This document shows positions 8,615 to 32,054 of a stretch of 64,000 nt of DNA, piece by piece. Position numbers and translations under genes: made by a program. Origin of the DNA: an uncultured Bacilli bacterium (lineage in GTDB: Bacteria > Bacillota_I > Bacilli_A > RF39 > UBA660); NCBI GenBank assembly GCA_944329195.1, contig CALVHX010000001.1:3562-67561 (forward strand), written 5' to 3'. Within the stretch, counting starts at the first letter, position 1; every line of letters starts with the position of its first letter. The notes below the pieces were generated by a model. That model did not search any database. It was not told the origin of the DNA and worked only from the letters and a program-made list of their open reading frames with translations.

Positions 8615-8628
8615 AATATTTCCCAGAT

Positions 8629-8644
8629 TATTTCCCGGGAAATA
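8629..8644. promoter_or_regulatory. NBS-like palindrome TATTTCCCGGGAAATA (copy 1), preceded by a direct half-site TATTTCCC at 8617-8624; 15 bp after the polC stop
   Basis: Exact 16-mer. CCCGGG is otherwise absent from this AT-rich window. Confidence 0.6.
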
Positions 8645-8723: not shown

Positions 8724-8739
8724 TATTTCCCGGGAAATA
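8724..8739. promoter_or_regulatory. NBS-like palindrome (copy 2), within the perfect 22-bp palindrome AATTATTTCCCGGGAAATAATT plus T5; about 100 bp upstream of polA
   Basis: Exact 16-mer TATTTCCCGGGAAATA. Confidence 0.6.
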
Positions 8740-11429: not shown

Positions 11430-11445
11430 TATTTCCCGGGAAATA
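11430..11445. promoter_or_regulatory. NBS-like palindrome (copy 3) with an adjacent duplicated right half-site GGGAAATA at 11450-11457; between polA and mutM
   Basis: Exact 16-mer, 8 bp after the polA stop and 38 bp before the mutM start. Confidence 0.6.
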
Positions 11446-11482
11446 ATTTGGGAAATAATTAATTAGAAGGAAGTGGATAATT

Positions 11483-17755: not shown

Positions 17756-19516
17756 ATGTTTAAAGAAATACTTGCCATAACTAAAAATTATGCTATTGTT
17801 AAAATTGATGGTGTCGTCAGTGATGACTTACTTAATTTAAATGTTATTTTTGAAGAAACAAACAAAAAAATATTGGGGGAAATTGAAGAAATAATTAATA
17901 ACGAAGCTAAAATTAATTTTTTGGGAGAATTTCAAGGTAATAGATTTTATGATGGAATCATACGAAAACCTAGTGTATCCTCTTCTATTAGGATAATCAA
18001 TGCTGACGAATTAAAAGAACTTACTGGTAACAATGATCCTTATAGTATGATGCTTGGGCTTTCTCCTCTATATAATAATTCTCCAATAAAAATAAACATC
18101 GATGATATGTGGAGTAATCATAGTGCAATTTTTGGTAACACTGGGTCTGGTAAGACTTATGGTGTTGCTAGACTTGTACAAAATTTATTTACAATGTCTA
18201 ATTACATTCCTTTTAATAGCATAATCTTTATATTTAATAATACAGATGAATATGATAATGCTTTTAATTCTATTAGTAATTATAATTTAAATTTTAATTA
18301 TAAGTTATTTACTACTGATACTGAAAGTAGTAATAATTTACTTAAACTTCCTTTGTGGCTTCTATCTGTTGATGATTATGCTAATATTTTAGATGTTAGC
18401 GAGTATTCTCAAATTATGATTATTGAAAAAATGCTTGTCTATGTTTCTCTCTTTGCAAAGAACGATGAAGAAAGTAATAAATATAAAAATCATTTAATTG
18501 CTAAGGCAATTGTTTCTGTTTTGTATTCTAATCAAGTTTCTGCTAGGATAAGAGATCAAATTTTTTCTATTTTAACTGATTGTTATACGAAGGAATTAAA
18601 TTTAGATGTTGAAGTACCCGGTGTTGGGTATACAAGATCATTTAGAAAGTGTTTTGATATTGATAGCAAAGGTGAATTTGTCGAAAGGATTCTCATTACG
18701 GAATATATTAATAAATTTATTGACAATACTATCGAGTGGAAAGAAGAGTATACCCCTACTTATTTTACGATAGATGATTTAGAGATTGCACTTAATTTTA
18801 CGCTAATCTCTGAAGGTCTATTACTAAATGAAAAGTCATATAGTGAGGCTACTGCTTTAAAAGTTAAACTTCATACTATTGCTAATAGTTCGATGAGAAA
18901 ATTTTTTGAGGTTGAAAATTTTATTTCAATAAATGATTTTATATCAAGTTTAATTCTAATTGGCAATAATAAAAGGGCACAAATTATAAATTTTGTTCTT
19001 GAAAGTATTGATGATAGATTTGCTAAAAATTTAGTGAAGGTATATTCTAGGTTATTATTTAATTTTTTAAAAACTTTACCTACGAGAGGTAGTATGCCTA
19101 TTCACATTATGCTTGAAGAGGCACACAGATATGTACAAAAAGATAACGATATTAATATTCTAGGATATAATATTTTTGAAAGAATAGCTAAAGAGGGAAG
19201 AAAATTTGGTGTGGTTTTAGATTTAATTACTCAAAGACCAACCGAACTTTCTGAAACTGTTATATCACAATGTAGTAACTTTTTAATTTTTAAAATTAAC
19301 CATCCTAGTGATCTGGAGTATATTGAAAAAATGGTTCCTAACATTAGCAGTGATGTTATAGAAAAACAAAAGTCCCTACAATCTGGTACTTGTGTTGCTT
19401 TTGGTAGAATGATGAAAATACCAATGATTGTAAAAATGGAAATACCTAATCCTCCTCCACAAAGTTCTAATGCTAAAGTATTTGATAAGTGGATGATACA
19501 GTGGAAAAATAACTAA
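17756..19516 (+). CDS. HerA-like (DUF87/COG0433) FtsK-HerA superfamily ATPase, stand-alone
   Basis: N-terminal HAS-barrel-like region, Walker A GNTGSGKTY, Walker B IMLEEAHRY, and the ITQRPTEL sensor motif typical of HerA/VirB4/FtsK. Confidence 0.65.
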   Translation: MFKEILAITKNYAIVKIDGVVSDDLLNLNVIFEETNKKILGEIEEIINNEAKINFLGEFQGNRFYDGIIRKPSVSSSIRIINADELKELTGNNDPYSMMLGLSPLYNNSPIKINIDDMWSNHSAIFGNTGSGKTYGVARLVQNLFTMSNYIPFNSIIFIFNNTDEYDNAFNSISNYNLNFNYKLFTTDTESSNNLLKLPLWLLSVDDYANILDVSEYSQIMIIEKMLVYVSLFAKNDEESNKYKNHLIAKAIVSVLYSNQVSARIRDQIFSILTDCYTKELNLDVEVPGVGYTRSFRKCFDIDSKGEFVERILITEYINKFIDNTIEWKEEYTPTYFTIDDLEIALNFTLISEGLLLNEKSYSEATALKVKLHTIANSSMRKFFEVENFISINDFISSLILIGNNKRAQIINFVLESIDDRFAKNLVKVYSRLLFNFLKTLPTRGSMPIHIMLEEAHRYVQKDNDINILGYNIFERIAKEGRKFGVVLDLITQRPTELSETVISQCSNFLIFKINHPSDLEYIEKMVPNISSDVIEKQKSLQSGTCVAFGRMMKIPMIVKMEIPNPPPQSSNAKVFDKWMIQWKNN

Positions 19517-19552: not shown

Positions 19553-19669
19553 CGACAATATCAACAGGTCTGTTGAAAAAAATATAAACACTTGTTATTT
19601 AAAGTTATCAACATCATTGTTGATAACTTTAATATTTCCTTTAATTATATATGCTTATGTTGTTGATAA
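19553..19669. promoter_or_regulatory. oriC left DnaA-box cluster (TTATCAACA / ATATCAACA variants, including an inverted pair at 19605-19627) plus the dnaA promoter
   Basis: ATATCAACA at 19556-19564, TTATCAACA at 19605-19613, TGTTGATAA at 19619-19627, TGTTGATAA at 19661-19669. The TTGATT...TATAAT promoter follows. Confidence 0.7.
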
Positions 19670-22385: not shown

Positions 22386-22549
22386 AAATTTAATTTATTA
22401 TTTTGTTTTTAACTATTAGCAATTTTTCTTGTTAATAGTTTTTATTTTTTTATATTTTTTTATATATTCGACAAAAAGAGACTTTTTTCGACATTTTTTT
22501 GTGTTTTAATATTTTCTACATATTTTTATATGTGGAAAGGGGGATTTTT

Positions 22550-23005
22550 ATGGATAATTACATTATTAATGAAAATACTTTATGTTTTACTCAAGATATT
22601 GATAATACTGATGAAATTCTTGTGATAGAGAAGAAAAGAAAATTTAATATTAAAATGAAATGTCTTAAGTTTATCAACAAAAGCTGTTGTTGTTATGGTC
22701 ACTCGTATAATGTACAAAGACAAATTATTATTGATAATTTTAATTTTTATATTAAAACTCCTATAGTTGTATCTGAGTATAACATGTTTATTTTCTTTCC
22801 TACATCTTCTCCAAGTTCAAATGAATGTATTTGGATTTCTTATAATAATGTTGATAGGTATGTTAAGGAAGATAATTATACTAAAATTTATTTTAAGGGT
22901 GGAAAGATTTTAAATATTAGTGCTAAATATACTACGATTGATAGTCAAATAACAAAATGTATTAAGATAGAACGTTATTTAAATAATTTAAAGGTAAAAA
23001 GGTAG
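22550..23005 (+). CDS. comK: ComK-family competence transcription factor-like protein
   Basis: MFIFFPTSSPSSNECIWISYNNV aligns with B. subtilis ComK IFLFPTLSSTRPQCGWISHVHV, with similar overall length and upstream cysteines. RBS GGAAAGGGGGA before ATG 22550. Confidence 0.55.
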   Translation: MDNYIINENTLCFTQDIDNTDEILVIEKKRKFNIKMKCLKFINKSCCCYGHSYNVQRQIIIDNFNFYIKTPIVVSEYNMFIFFPTSSPSSNECIWISYNNVDRYVKEDNYTKIYFKGGKILNISAKYTTIDSQITKCIKIERYLNNLKVKR

Positions 23006-23116: not shown

Positions 23117-24208
23117 ATGAAAATTAAAAATATTAGATTAAAAAATTATCGTAATTATGATAATTTAAATATTTCTTTTTGCGATAATTTAAATATTATA
23201 ATTGGAGATAATGCTCAAGGTAAGACTAATCTTCTGGAAGCAATTTATGTACTTGCTGTTACTAAATCTTTTTTATCGATTAACGACCACAATTTAATAA
23301 AATTTGGTAATAAATGTTCTTTTATTGAAGGATTAATCGAAAAGAAAAATTCAACTCTAGATTTGGAAATATTACTCAATGATAATGGAAAATTTGTTAA
23401 AATTAACCATAAAGAAATTAAAAAATTAAGTGAGTATATTTCGAAGATGAACGTTATTATTTTTAGTGCTGATTCTATTAGAATGCTTAAAGAAAGTCCC
23501 TCTACTAGGAGAAAATATTTTAATATTCAAATAAGTCAGATAAATAAAAGATACTTAAAAATGTTAACGGATTATAATATTATTTTAAGGCAGAGAAATG
23601 AATTCTTAAAAATTATTGATATGAATAAAAAAACTGATACTGACTATTTAGAAATAATTAATGACAAATATGTTGATTTATCGCTTAAAATATATAATTT
23701 TAGAGATGAATATGTTAAAAATATTAATAGTTATTTAGGAAATATGTTTTTTTCTATTACTGGTTTTGATGGACTTAAATTAAAGTATATTTCTAATATT
23801 GATAATAGTAGAGATAATTTATTAGAGAAGTTAAATAAAAATATAAATAAAGAAATTCAGTATAAAATGACTTTAATTGGTCCTAATAGAGATGATTTTT
23901 GTTTTTATTTGAATGATAAAAATTTATCTCTATATGGTTCTCAGGGTCAGATGAGAAGTGCGATAATTGCTCTTAAAATGTCTGAAGTATTCTTATTTAC
24001 TGATAAAGTTGGGGATAGTCCAATACTTCTATTAGATGATATGTTTAGTGAATTAGATATTAATAAAAGAAATAATATACTTGCTAATTTAACTCATGAT
24101 GTACAAACTATAATAACAACTACTGATATAGATAATATTAATGAGAATATTAGAAAAAAAGCAAATGTTTATGAAATAAAAGATGGAAAATTATTTCCCG
24201 GGAAATAA
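23117..24208 (+). CDS. recF: DNA replication and repair protein RecF
   Basis: Walker A GDNAQGKTNLLEA, SMC-like signature and LLLDDMFSELD Walker B. The last codons and stop (KLFPGK*) are supplied by NBS palindrome copy 4. Confidence 0.85.
   Translation: MKIKNIRLKNYRNYDNLNISFCDNLNIIIGDNAQGKTNLLEAIYVLAVTKSFLSINDHNLIKFGNKCSFIEGLIEKKNSTLDLEILLNDNGKFVKINHKEIKKLSEYISKMNVIIFSADSIRMLKESPSTRRKYFNIQISQINKRYLKMLTDYNIILRQRNEFLKIIDMNKKTDTDYLEIINDKYVDLSLKIYNFRDEYVKNINSYLGNMFFSITGFDGLKLKYISNIDNSRDNLLEKLNKNINKEIQYKMTLIGPNRDDFCFYLNDKNLSLYGSQGQMRSAIIALKMSEVFLFTDKVGDSPILLLDDMFSELDINKRNNILANLTHDVQTIITTTDIDNINENIRKKANVYEIKDGKLFPGK
24192..24207. promoter_or_regulatory. NBS-like palindrome (copy 4), overlapping the recF stop codon; 26 bp upstream of gyrB
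   Basis: Exact TATTTCCCGGGAAATA within AATTATTTCCCGGGAAATAATT. Confidence 0.6.
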
Positions 24209-28694: not shown

Positions 28695-28753
28695 TAAAAT
28701 TACTTTCTTTTTTTAATATTGCAAAGTGTATATAATTTTTAAATGTGCAAAAT

Positions 28754-28769
28754 TATTTCCCGGGAAATA
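28754..28769. promoter_or_regulatory. NBS-like palindrome (copy 5), 60 bp after the gyrA stop
   Basis: Exact 16-mer within AATTATTTCCCGGGAAATAATT. Confidence 0.6.
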
Positions 28770-28836
28770 ATTAGTAAACAAATGTTCGCTATTGCTAAAA
28801 TTCTTGAAATATATGTTAAAACATGTTATTATACTG

Positions 28837-28919
28837 TTGATACAACATTAATTAGTGGAACCAAGTCAGGATCGGAAGATAGCAGCTTTAACACTTTATT
28901 AATGTGTGTATCTTTTTTT
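28837..28919 (+). ncRNA. ffs: signal recognition particle RNA (small 4.5S/scr type)
   Basis: AAGUCAGGAUCGGAAGAUAGCAGC matches the SRP domain IV consensus AGGUCAGGUCCGGAAGGAAGCAGC. The 5' and 3' arms are complementary (GATACAACATTAATTAGTG / CACTTTATTAATGTGTGTATC). Promoter TTGAAA(28804)-17-TATTAT(28827), T7 run at the 3' end. Confidence 0.6.
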
Positions 28920-28965: not shown

Positions 28966-28981
28966 TGTTTCACGTGGAACA
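28966..28981. promoter_or_regulatory. parS-like site 1 (TGTTTCACGTGGAACA)
   Basis: One mismatch from the ParB/Spo0J consensus. Confidence 0.65.
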
Positions 28982-29075
28982 TAAAAATATATAGTGTTGT
29001 GGGAATTAATTTTAATTATAAAATTTAAAATTTGAAACAAATTATTTTATTAATATTTAAATAGATAACGTCTAA

Positions 29076-29091
29076 TGTTCCACGTGAAACA
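29076..29091. promoter_or_regulatory. parS-like site 2 (TGTTCCACGTGAAACA)
   Basis: Identical to the B. subtilis parS consensus. Confidence 0.7.
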
Positions 29092-29188
29092 TGTCTTTTA
29101 AAATTAAAATTGGGTGATTATAAAAATATAATCAGTTTAGAAAAAGTAGTTTAAAAATAGATTTTATTATTTGCGTATAATCAATTCA

Positions 29189-29204
29189 TGTTTCACGTGG
29201 AACA
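29189..29204. promoter_or_regulatory. parS-like site 3 (TGTTTCACGTGGAACA), start of duplicated unit 1
   Basis: Followed by the DnaA-box-like TTATCAACA at 29208-29216. Confidence 0.65.
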
Positions 29205-29389
29205 TATTATTTATCAACAGTTTAACATATCTTTTAATGGAAAGTGTTTTAAAAAAATATCAAGATAAAAGTATATCAAAATTTTAATTTATTTTTTTCT
29301 TAATGTATAACTTTAAATTTTTAAATAGTTTATGTTATTTAACTTGAAATTTATAATAAATAAGATTTATTTAAATTTAGATAAATACA

Positions 29390-29405
29390 TGTTCCACGTG
29401 GAACA
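29390..29405. promoter_or_regulatory. parS-like site 4 (TGTTCCACGTGGAACA), centre of the perfect 22-bp palindrome ACATGTTCCACGTGGAACATGT
   Basis: Perfect palindrome, two symmetric changes from the consensus. Confidence 0.65.
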
Positions 29406-29482
29406 TGTATTTATAACTATTGTATTAAAAAAATACTTAATATGTGTATGTTTGAATATTTACTTATAATTAATTAGTTTAA

Positions 29483-29498
29483 TGTTTCACGTGGAACA
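29483..29498. promoter_or_regulatory. parS-like site 5 (duplicate of site 3)
   Basis: Start of tandem unit 2. Confidence 0.65.
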
Positions 29499-29683
29499 TA
29501 TTATTTATCAACAGTTTAACATATCTTTTAATGGAAAGTGTTTTAAAAAAATATCAAGATAAAAGCATATTAAAATTTTAATTTATTTTATTCTTAATGT
29601 ATAAGTTTAAATTTTTAAATAGTTTATATTATTTAACTTGAAATTTATAATAAATAAGATTTATTTAAATTCAGATAAATACA

Positions 29684-29699
29684 TGTTCCACGTGGAACA
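29684..29699. promoter_or_regulatory. parS-like site 6 (duplicate of site 4)
   Basis: Within tandem unit 2. Confidence 0.65.
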
Positions 29700-29772
29700 T
29701 GTATTTTTAACTGTATTAAAAAGAATTTAATATGTGTATGTTTGAATATTTACTTATAATTAATTAGTTTAA

Positions 29773-29788
29773 TGTTTCACGTGAAACA
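29773..29788. promoter_or_regulatory. parS site 7 (TGTTTCACGTGAAACA, exact consensus)
   Basis: Exact 16-bp palindrome. Confidence 0.7.
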
Positions 29789-29875
29789 TTAATAATATTA
29801 ACAGTAATCAGTCATTTATTGATATATTAGTATAATTATATTGTTGTAAATAGGTATTTTATATGGTAATATGTT

Positions 29876-29891
29876 TATGTTTCACGTGAAA
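29876..29891. promoter_or_regulatory. parS site 8 (exact consensus), immediately upstream of and overlapping the tadA 5' region and RBS
   Basis: Exact 16-bp palindrome ending 4 nt before the GGAG RBS of tadA. Confidence 0.7.
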
Positions 29892-29909
29892 CATGGAGTT
29901 TGTGATAAT

Positions 29910-30338: not shown

Positions 30339-30383
30339 AATTTTCACTTGTTTTTGTGCTATAATATTGTCGATAGGAGGCAT

Positions 30384-32054
30384 ATGGTGAGTTATTTAGC
30401 TTTGTATAGAAAATATAGGCCGAATAATTTTGATGATGTAAGTGGTCAAGAAAAAGTAGTAGCTGTTATTAAAAATGCGATTGTTAATAATAAAGTTTCT
30501 CATGCATATTTATTTAGTGGACCTAGGGGAACTGGTAAGACTACTATTGCTAAAATATTGGCTCGACTTGTTAATTGTGAAAATTTATCTTCAGATGGCA
30601 AACCTTGTGGAAAATGTTATAGTTGTGTTAATTATTTTAATAGTAACGATATTGTTGAAATTGATGCAGCTTCTAATAATGGTGTTGATGAAATTAGAGA
30701 ACTTAGGGATAAGATTAATTTAGTGCCAAGTAATTCTAAATATAAGGTATACATAATTGATGAGGTACACATGCTTACAACGCAAGCTTTTAATGCTTTG
30801 TTAAAAACTTTAGAAGAACCTCCATCTCACATTATATTTATTTTAGCTACTACTGATCCGCAAAAGGTTCCTTTGACTATATCTTCTAGATGTCAAAAAT
30901 TTCAGTTTTCTAAATTGGATGTTACGAAGATTGTTGAGAGATTAGAACAAATTGTCAATTCTGAAAATATTGATATTGAAAATGACGCACTGTTCGAAAT
31001 TGCAAGACTAGCGGAAGGTGGCATGCGAGATGCTATCAATATATTAGACCAGCTAGTTGCTTATAAAAACGATAAAATTACCTTGGAAGATGTTTATTTA
31101 GTTAATGGCTCGATTTCATATGATGATGTTTTAAAGTTGATGAATGCTATTAGATTAAATGATAAAATTGAAATAATTAAATTTATTGATTTTTTTGATA
31201 ATAGTGGTAAAGAGGTCAATAAATTTGTTCAAGAATTAATTGTTTTTTTAAAAGATGTTATTTTGTATAAAAATACTGGCATTTTGACTGGTATTGAAGT
31301 TAAAAATAGTTGTGTTAAATCCGTTGCTGATCTATATGATGATATTATTTTATATAATTTTATAGAAGATTTGAATGAGACTAGCAATAGAATAAAATTT
31401 TCTTCTCATTCTTCGATAATTTTTATGACAGCAGTTCTAAAATTTTCAAATAATTATTTTTGTGAGGGTACTGAAAATATTTCCCGGGAAATAATTAAAA
31501 AGAGTTTTGATAATAAAAAAGAGCAAAATAAAAAAGAACAACTAAAAGAAAATATTTCCCGGGAAATAATTAAGGCCAATGAAGCTTCTTCTATGTCCGA
31601 CAAAGAAATAAAAGTAAGAATAAATAATTCGCTTGCCTTAGCTTCTAAATCTTTTTTGCAAGAATTAAAGAGTAATTGGAATAGAATAGATGATTATATT
31701 TATGATGATAGTTTTTCTGTGGTGAGTGGTCTGCTTAAGGATTCTGTGCCTGTTGTTGGATCTTCTACTAATTTAATTATTGTCAATAGGCTTGATTCTG
31801 TTGTTAATAGAATTAATGAAAATATATTGTTGATAGAAAAGTTGTTGAAAAAAATATTTAATTATAATATGCAAGTTGTTGCCATTGATGAGGATACTTG
31901 GTGTGAGGAAAAAAATAAATATATTATTAATTTAAAAAAGGGAATTAAGTATGAAATTATTGATTCTAAAGAAAAAAATACCGAGAGAAAGGTAAAAAAT
32001 TCTGTTGATGAACTTATTGGTTTGATTGGTGAAAGTGTTATTGAGTATAAATAA
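30384..32054 (+). CDS. dnaX: DNA polymerase III subunit gamma/tau
   Basis: RYRPNNFDDVSGQ, GPRGTGKTT, zinc module CGKCYSC, DEVHML. Carries two in-frame NBS palindromes that encode ENISREIIK twice. ATG 30384 follows an AGGAGG RBS. Confidence 0.85.
   Translation: MVSYLALYRKYRPNNFDDVSGQEKVVAVIKNAIVNNKVSHAYLFSGPRGTGKTTIAKILARLVNCENLSSDGKPCGKCYSCVNYFNSNDIVEIDAASNNGVDEIRELRDKINLVPSNSKYKVYIIDEVHMLTTQAFNALLKTLEEPPSHIIFILATTDPQKVPLTISSRCQKFQFSKLDVTKIVERLEQIVNSENIDIENDALFEIARLAEGGMRDAINILDQLVAYKNDKITLEDVYLVNGSISYDDVLKLMNAIRLNDKIEIIKFIDFFDNSGKEVNKFVQELIVFLKDVILYKNTGILTGIEVKNSCVKSVADLYDDIILYNFIEDLNETSNRIKFSSHSSIIFMTAVLKFSNNYFCEGTENISREIIKKSFDNKKEQNKKEQLKENISREIIKANEASSMSDKEIKVRINNSLALASKSFLQELKSNWNRIDDYIYDDSFSVVSGLLKDSVPVVGSSTNLIIVNRLDSVVNRINENILLIEKLLKKIFNYNMQVVAIDEDTWCEEKNKYIINLKKGIKYEIIDSKEKNTERKVKNSVDELIGLIGESVIEYK
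31478..31493. promoter_or_regulatory. NBS-like palindrome (copy 6) inside the dnaX coding sequence, in frame
   Basis: Exact 16-mer, part of the 26-bp direct repeat GAAAATATTTCCCGGGAAATAATTAA. Confidence 0.6.
31553..31568. promoter_or_regulatory. NBS-like palindrome (copy 7) inside the dnaX coding sequence, in frame, 75 bp after copy 6
   Basis: Exact 16-mer. Second copy of the 26-bp direct repeat. Confidence 0.6.

Follow-up and report, generated by a model that had tools for sequence, protein, structure and literature searches.

Palindromes matching the Noc-binding site are conserved as DNA in the dnaX linker, beside a parS array, in uncultured Bacilli

Results

The window analysed here is a 64,000-nucleotide stretch of DNA from an uncultured Bacilli bacterium (GenBank assembly GCA_944329195.1, contig CALVHX010000001.1, positions 3,562 to 67,561), and the element under study is a pair of palindromic repeats inside its dnaX gene (30384..32054, + strand). 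Based on its open reading frame (ORF), Pfam matches and gene neighbours, dnaX encodes a tau-type clamp-loader subunit of DNA polymerase III of 556 amino acids (aa). The ORF extends from 30348 to 32054, the start codon is probably at 30384 (MVSYLALYRKYRP), and the product read from there is identical to a 556-aa database protein (P0001). Pfam assigns it the domains DNA_pol3_delta2, AAA and DNAX_ATPase_lid, and the gene order around it is tadA-dnaX-ebfC-recR-holB. As the initial annotation had stated, a 26-bp unit, GAAAATATTTCCCGGGAAATAATTAA, occurs twice in frame within dnaX, 75 bp apart: exact matches lie on the + strand at 31473-31498 and 31548-31573, compared to a chance expectation of 0.01 matches from shuffled sequences, and a third copy with 3 mismatches is found at 28749. 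Both copies are read in the frame of the ORF (translation ...TENISREIIKKSFDNKKEQNKKEQLKENISREIIKANE...) and both encode the peptide ENISREIIK, at aa 364-372 and aa 389-397, respectively. The spacer between them holds a 15-bp tandem repeat identified by Tandem Repeats Finder (31512..31541, + strand; AATAAAAAAGAACAA x2), which encodes NKKEQNKKEQ.

The core of the 26-bp unit is identical to the published 16-bp consensus of the Noc-binding site (NBS), TATTTCCCGGGAAATA, which occupies 31478-31493 in the first copy and 31553-31568 in the second. This consensus is reported as TATTTCCC-GGGAAATA and is distinct from the parS consensus, TGTTTCAC-GTGAAACA (PMC7383237). The 14-bp palindrome ATTTCCCGGGAAAT has seven exact copies in the window (8630, 8725, 11431, 24193, 28755, 31479 and 31554), or about 1 NBS per 9 kb, and shuffles give an expectation of 0.16 even when up to 2 mismatches are allowed. 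With the flanking T and A, all seven sites match the NBS consensus at 16 of 16 positions, which bears out the earlier naming of the motif as a Noc-binding-site palindrome, and the seven CCCGGG hexamers present in the window all lie inside these sites. Across the loci that we compared, 69 unique site contexts yield an extended consensus, AAATT-core-AATTT, with T at position -1 in 99%. Sequence likeness among the seven copies ends at the 22-26-bp palindrome, and their flanks are unrelated.

Both palindromes fall in a part of DnaX that is predicted to be disordered. With 15 homologues as input, AlphaFold confidently models the ATPase domains, domain III (last helix at 343-359) and the C-terminal domain (from the helix at 406-418), and the sole long low-confidence segment is aa 362-402, with predicted local distance difference test values of 25-31 (below 50) and no secondary structure. 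This hypervariable linker between domain III and the C-terminal domain (31467..31589, + strand) contains both ENISREIIK peptides in full. Between L352 and R412 the only conserved alignment columns are I391, S392 and I395. The model, together with a linker that is unalignable among homologues, agrees with the earlier placement of the palindrome in the variable tau linker.

To describe the linker in relatives, we aligned 120 DnaX homologues (119 of them full-length) ranging from 100% down to 61% identity, with lineages defined as 80%-identity clusters. Nearly all 120 carry one or two ISREI islands within a linker that is otherwise unalignable and variable in length. The island is present in 10 of 10 lineages, and at least one island is found in 114 of the 119 full-length proteins. 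The two-island state is common to several lineages, at spacings of 19, 25, 26, 33 or 35 aa, and is therefore not specific to the species of the window; the possibility that the segment is lineage-specific, raised by the initial annotation, does not survive this alignment of orthologues. Decayed islands read ISQEI, ISWEI, ISHEI, ISRKI or FSREI, and these changes are mostly transitions at the central CG. At the DNA level, decay in the clade linkers (e.g., P0031, P0079, L128 and L137) mostly takes the form of C-to-T or G-to-A changes at the central CpG (CGG to CAG, TGG or CAT), a pattern that could reflect cytosine methylation of CCGG or CCCGGG.

The initial annotation had also advised a check for slippage variants between strains. 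Within the species of the window, no linker changes are present among about 15 protein variants. Some related lineages carry 1-4 tandem 21-bp units, GAAAAT-ATTTCCC-AAGATAGA, between two complete sites, encoding ENISQD[RK], and every such unit has an intact NBS half-site. The variable number of these units indicates that the linker region evolves by local slippage, seen in the copy number of half-site repeats in related lineages and not among strains of this species.

To distinguish conservation of the DNA from conservation of the peptide, we examined how the island is encoded in 80 clade loci (L084-L163), which were collected from metagenomes by alignment to a clade-specific C-terminal portion of DnaX. 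Every ISREI in these loci is encoded by exactly ATTTCCCGGGAAAT, with zero synonymous change, and each of the decayed peptides corresponds to the palindrome with one or two mismatches. No orthologue thus carries the ISREI peptide without an exact palindrome, the observation which, according to the initial annotation, would have marked the DNA motif as an incidental match. The codons concerned are rare: among the 46 genes of the window, TCC accounts for 2.4% of Ser codons and CGG for 0.9% of Arg codons, and only six CGG codons occur in these genes, two of them in the dnaX sites. Given this codon usage, the probability of ISREI being encoded as ATTTCCCGGGAAAT is about 1e-4. At other positions of the same genes, each invariant Ser or Arg column is encoded by 2-4 different codons, and TCC and CGG are never among them.

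More distant genomes show the same site read in other ways. An outgroup sample of 80 Firmicute dnaX loci (among the matches listed), at no more than 48% identity, was obtained by a profile search of contigs with full-length DnaX. Among distant uncultured Bacilli with 41-44% DnaX identity, two (L005 and L022) hold an exact NBS at the corresponding linker position, in a different frame that reads YFPGNN; L004 has a one-mismatch copy of the palindrome at this position in the YFPGNN frame, and another of these distant relatives, L017, has an exact NBS there that is read NISREI(K). Three loci from other uncultured Bacilli and Erysipelotrichaceae carry exact parS in place of NBS in the linker (aa ~357-403): L008 (11068 and 11137), L050 (11101, 11146 and 11191) and L058 (11068). 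These parS sites read [ND]V[SP]R[EG]T (e.g., VSRET), in the codon phase of ISREI. In total, a parS or NBS lies in the dnaX linker of 8 of the 80 Firmicute dnaX loci (among the matches listed), and all eight loci have 23-34% GC. Within the window itself, the NBS at 24192..24207 covers the 3' end of recF, namely its four final codons and the stop (...LFPGK*), 25 bp ahead of gyrB, and thus uses a second reading frame of the palindrome. The NBS in another frame and the parS at the same position in distant relatives indicate that selection acts on the DNA, and the lack of synonymous variation, the use of other frames and the copy at the recF stop codon indicate that the ENISREIIK peptide is a passenger of the DNA motif. 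Rare-codon invariance, frame independence and DNA-level conservation together support the earlier suggestion of selection for the DNA site itself.

Sites in the distant low-GC Bacilli metagenome-assembled genomes (MAGs) are also found in genes downstream of dnaX. At orthologous positions in such genes, NBS occur at 3570 in L004 and 13451 in L005, and at 14812 in L007 and 14611 in L022; they read YFPGN within ORFs of 279-289 aa and 234-239 aa. It follows that dnaX is not the only gene with a conserved NBS inside it.

The dnaX sites lie close to a large parS array. Eight parS (TGTTNCACGTGNAACA), recognised with the parS consensus of PMC7383237, are spread over 28966..29893, between a small signal recognition particle (SRP) RNA gene (28836..28918, + strand; Rfam RF00169, 54.8 bits) and tadA. 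The array spans about 950 bp of non-coding DNA with spacings of 89-201 bp, its last site overlaps the start of the tadA ORF (29871), and it includes a duplicated 291-bp unit (29185-29475 and 29479-29769, 88% identity). On the upstream side of the array, an NBS (28754..28769) lies in the intergenic DNA that separates gyrA from the SRP RNA gene, and the array with its flanking NBS constitutes a putative centromere region. The eight parS and the seven NBS of the window form two separate palindrome classes with no intermediates; the co-occurrence of two such sharply distinct classes implies a separate binding specificity for each, as is the case with ParB and Noc (PMC7383237). Gaps between genes downstream of the array are no longer than 45 bp until past recR. 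Since the DNA after the array is almost all coding (tadA-dnaX-ebfC-recR), the DnaX linker would be the nearest DNA able to keep a 16-bp palindrome.

This layout (NBS, SRP RNA gene, 4-10 parS, tadA, and dnaX with NBS) recurs in dozens of clade loci, and an NBS is found upstream of the parS array in nearly every clade locus that reaches far enough. L035 (OZ006970.1, 8682-9308) has six NBS in alternation with five parS, and within each class the sites repeat about every 125 bp; parS-NBS-parS triplets occur in L022 (9353-9406), L025 (9283-9382) and L163 (855-1010 and 1580-1733). Judged from their sequence arrangement, these interleaved arrays suggest deliberate side-by-side loading of Noc-type and ParB-type proteins. 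Upstream of dnaX, a rumen Bacilli MAG (L015) has seven exact NBS that repeat every 62-63 bp (46-433), and no parS was found in the 12.7 kb of this locus.

All seven NBS of the window lie within about 12 kb of dnaA (19778), and none is found between 31.6 and 64 kb. The first part of the window comprises suf genes, polC, polA, fpg, a HerA-like gene, dnaA, dnaN, a comK-like gene, recF, gyrB and gyrA; these are followed by the SRP RNA gene, tadA, dnaX, ebfC, recR and holB and, further downstream, by mfd, spoVT, metG, spoIID, spoIIQ and mreB. The sites outside the region from recF to dnaX comprise an intergenic pair between polC and polA, 95 bp apart (8629-8644 and 8724-8739), which is also present in a strain contig (L165), and an intergenic NBS between polA and fpg (11430..11445). 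Half-sites stand beside two of these intergenic sites: AATATTTCCC (8617-8626) precedes the site at 8630, and GGGAAATAATT (11449-11459) follows the site at 11431. Both half-sites are similar to those repeated in tandem in the dnaX linker of relatives. As a candidate function, an intrinsic terminator was rejected, as no NBS was called terminator-like and simple single-site hairpins reach only -3 to -7 kcal/mol (z about 0). The NBS with an adjacent half-site fold more strongly (-10.4 kcal/mol, z = -2.9, at 8630; -13.5 kcal/mol, z = -3.7, at 11431).

Discussion

Noc nucleates at the 16-bp NBS, spreads in a cytidine triphosphate (CTP)-dependent manner and recruits DNA to the membrane (PMC8429893). 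Residues 173, 179, 184 and 201 are those that set specificity for the NBS (PMC7383237). Based on the match to the consensus and on conservation of the DNA itself, the dnaX palindromes are in all likelihood genuine Noc-binding sites that are kept by purifying selection on the DNA, in a predicted disordered linker near dnaA. By sequence, they most likely represent a pair of neighbouring loading sites for Noc that flank the centromere region on its downstream side. The NBS would serve as nucleation and loading sites for Noc, a CTP-dependent ParB paralogue, which would then slide onto the adjoining DNA, tether it to the membrane and block division over origin-proximal DNA. Purifying selection would keep the site DNA in the linker, where DnaX appears to tolerate almost any sequence, and the sites are part of a conserved cluster near dnaA with NBS on both sides of a multi-copy parS array. 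The two copies may have arisen by local duplication or slippage of a site-bearing unit, followed in the species of the window by homogenisation, possibly through gene conversion, so that two adjacent nucleation sites would result.

Several observations weigh against this interpretation. No noc or parB gene was detected by NCBIfam and Pfam scans of 41 of the approximately 46 window ORFs, by a scan for the GERRxRA motif in all six frames of 1.7 Mb of fetched loci, or in the flanks of the window, over about 4 kb on the left and 10 kb on the right. The presence of Noc in this organism is therefore something that we infer. Five of the 119 full-length DnaX proteins, all strain-level variants, have no intact site, and one lineage (L135-L143) retains only the one-mismatch form ATTTCCCAGGAAAT, which indicates that, for a short time at least, the site can be dispensed with. 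GC skew is positive across the window, on both sides of dnaA, leaving the position of the origin relative to the sites uncertain. The skew switch thus does not lie at dnaA, despite three DnaA-box-like repeats at 19605-19669; genes in the 12 kb left of dnaA are on the + strand, and an extension of the contig further left is also + oriented.

The palindrome could instead be bound by a protein other than Noc, for instance a divergent member of the ParB family or a transcription factor acting on several replication genes together. The lack of a noc gene in the window, its flanks and the fetched loci would fit such a binder, as would an extended consensus, AAATT-core-AATTT, longer than the published 16 bp. 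All seven sites also adjoin replication or repair genes (polC, polA, fpg, recF/gyrB, gyrA and dnaX); however, replication genes cluster near oriC, and adjacency to them is thus expected by position. We regard a different binder as unlikely, given that the seven sites match the Noc consensus at every position, that regular arrays of 6-7 sites, some of them interleaved with parS (L015 and L035), are typical of ParB-family loading arrays and not of operators, and that most sites are found at the 3' ends of genes or within genes rather than at promoters. A small mobile palindromic repeat, similar to miniature inverted-repeat transposable elements or repetitive extragenic palindromes, that landed twice in dnaX and elsewhere in the window would explain several identical and mostly intergenic palindromes, dnaX copies identical over 26 bp and the extra half-sites beside two intergenic copies. 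However, no flanks, terminal repeats or target-site duplications are shared among the seven copies, the strain variants of the species all agree in this region, and the dnaX site is found at the orthologous place in 10 lineages, whose protein identity goes as low as 61%, as well as in more distant genomes, which indicates vertical inheritance. The initial wording that the palindrome was inserted twice, and the mobile-repeat-like spread proposed with it, therefore do not fit a site which is old and lacks shared flanks; we hold such an origin to be highly improbable.

Function at the level of RNA is also very unlikely. The two copies could pair as a long-range stem in the dnaX mRNA and modulate translation, for example through a frameshift at the AAA AAG behind the first site, giving a shorter, gamma-like DnaX, and a 16-bp stem between them is indeed predicted (minimum free energy -27.4 kcal/mol, z = -2.9); such a stem follows automatically from the repetition of any palindrome. 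Many lineages have a single site, the palindrome also occurs between genes and in other frames, and single-site hairpins are as weak as noted above. The -1 frameshift site of Escherichia coli dnaX is A AAA AAG AGU GA, and the sequence ATT AAA AAG AGT TTT GA at 31494-31510 resembles it. Like the E. coli site, it lies just after domain III, contains the string AAAAAGAGT and has a nearby -1 stop, the -1 frame ending after two more codons with a protein terminating in ...KKEF*. Unlike the E. coli site, it is imperfect, as the heptamer lacks its first A and reads only T AAA AAG, it shows no conservation among relatives, and it has no suitably placed downstream stimulator; the slippery-like sequence lies within the loop and not a few bases upstream of the structure. 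The resemblance is probably due to chance in a lysine-rich, AT-rich linker. Programmed frameshifting of dnaX to gamma was rejected as a candidate, with no conserved slippery heptamer and with the next structure-forming element about 50 nt downstream. Finally, ISREI might be a functional motif of tau (e.g., for binding a partner) whose match to the Noc site is incidental. It is the only conserved island of the linker, present in 114 of 119 homologues, but it shows no synonymous variation although TCC and CGG are among the rarest codons, the same DNA at the same place reads YFPGNN in another frame and is replaced by parS reading VSRET in other lineages, the identical palindrome occurs between genes and at the recF stop codon, and the segment is predicted to be disordered. 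A peptide motif is strongly disfavoured, to the point of being scarcely credible.

If the palindromes are Noc loading sites, their position suggests a further and more tentative possibility, to which we would give rather less than even credence: across a large group of uncultured Bacilli with low GC, the DnaX linker would act as a conserved landing pad bordering the chromosomal centromere. NBS may be deliberately set on both sides of the 4-10-copy parS array, and interleaved with it in L035, in which case the clamps of Noc and ParB would be loaded next to each other. Such an arrangement could link segregation of the origin with nucleoid occlusion and membrane tethering, or could limit the ParB domain. 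The linker parS (VSRET) versus NBS (ISREI), read in one frame, could represent a cis-element that switched specificity with the divergence of Noc from ParB.

In Bacillus subtilis, approximately 70 NBS are present on the chromosome and are under-represented near the terminus (PMC4726725). The Noc of Staphylococcus aureus is 48% identical to that of B. subtilis, recognises the same consensus at origin-proximal sites and spreads over 8-10 kb (PMC5540599). The sites described here are like those of both species in that the 14/16-bp palindrome TATTTCCCGGGAAATA is identical and is present in multiple chromosomal copies (PMC7383237, PMC5540599). Unlike in B. subtilis, their local density is about 7 times the chromosome average (7 in 64 kb versus ~70 per chromosome). 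Unlike the NBS of either species, they hold a conserved intragenic position in the dnaX linker, occur in pairs or arrays, flank or interleave with a large parS array, and have symmetrical extended flanks (AAATT...AATTT).

Intragenic parS offer a second comparison, as ParB-family loading sites that lie in coding sequence and leave the gene intact. It was within spo0J that the first parS of B. subtilis came to light. In Pseudomonas aeruginosa, 9 of 10 parS are intragenic (PMC4368675). The dnaX site differs from these in having, by its sequence, NBS (Noc) specificity, in dictating a peptide in a disordered linker and in varying in frame by lineage. SlmA-binding sites (SBS) of E. coli are distributed around the chromosome and, as with NBS, are under-represented near the terminus (PMC4726725). 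SBS are likewise palindromic sites for a nucleoid-occlusion factor, but the SlmA protein family (TetR) and its motif are unrelated to those of NBS. We know of no link between SBS and parS arrays or dnaX.

NBS as a kind and intragenic sites of the ParB family are already known. What is new is the retention of the site in the DnaX linker by many lineages, its independence of reading frame, its interchange with parS, and the bracketing of, or interleaving with, a large parS array by NBS. The dnaX site provides an unusually clean natural case in which a predicted protein-binding DNA site dictates the amino-acid sequence of an essential protein, with the palindrome retained at one spot of dnaX in different frames and by means of some of the genome's rarest codons. 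Next to the centromere, the DnaX linker also stands out as DNA that can be written freely. That uncultured gut Bacilli keep sites of the Noc and ParB types next to each other (NBS, parS array, NBS, interleaved in one genome) makes the interplay of two paralogous CTP-dependent clamps directly testable, and would be of greater interest if the juxtaposition is functional.

The block dnaA-dnaN-recF-gyrB-gyrA has two unusual neighbours in this window. A HerA-like helicase gene (17756-19516) lies immediately upstream of dnaA, and a ComK-family gene (22499-23005) lies between dnaN and recF.

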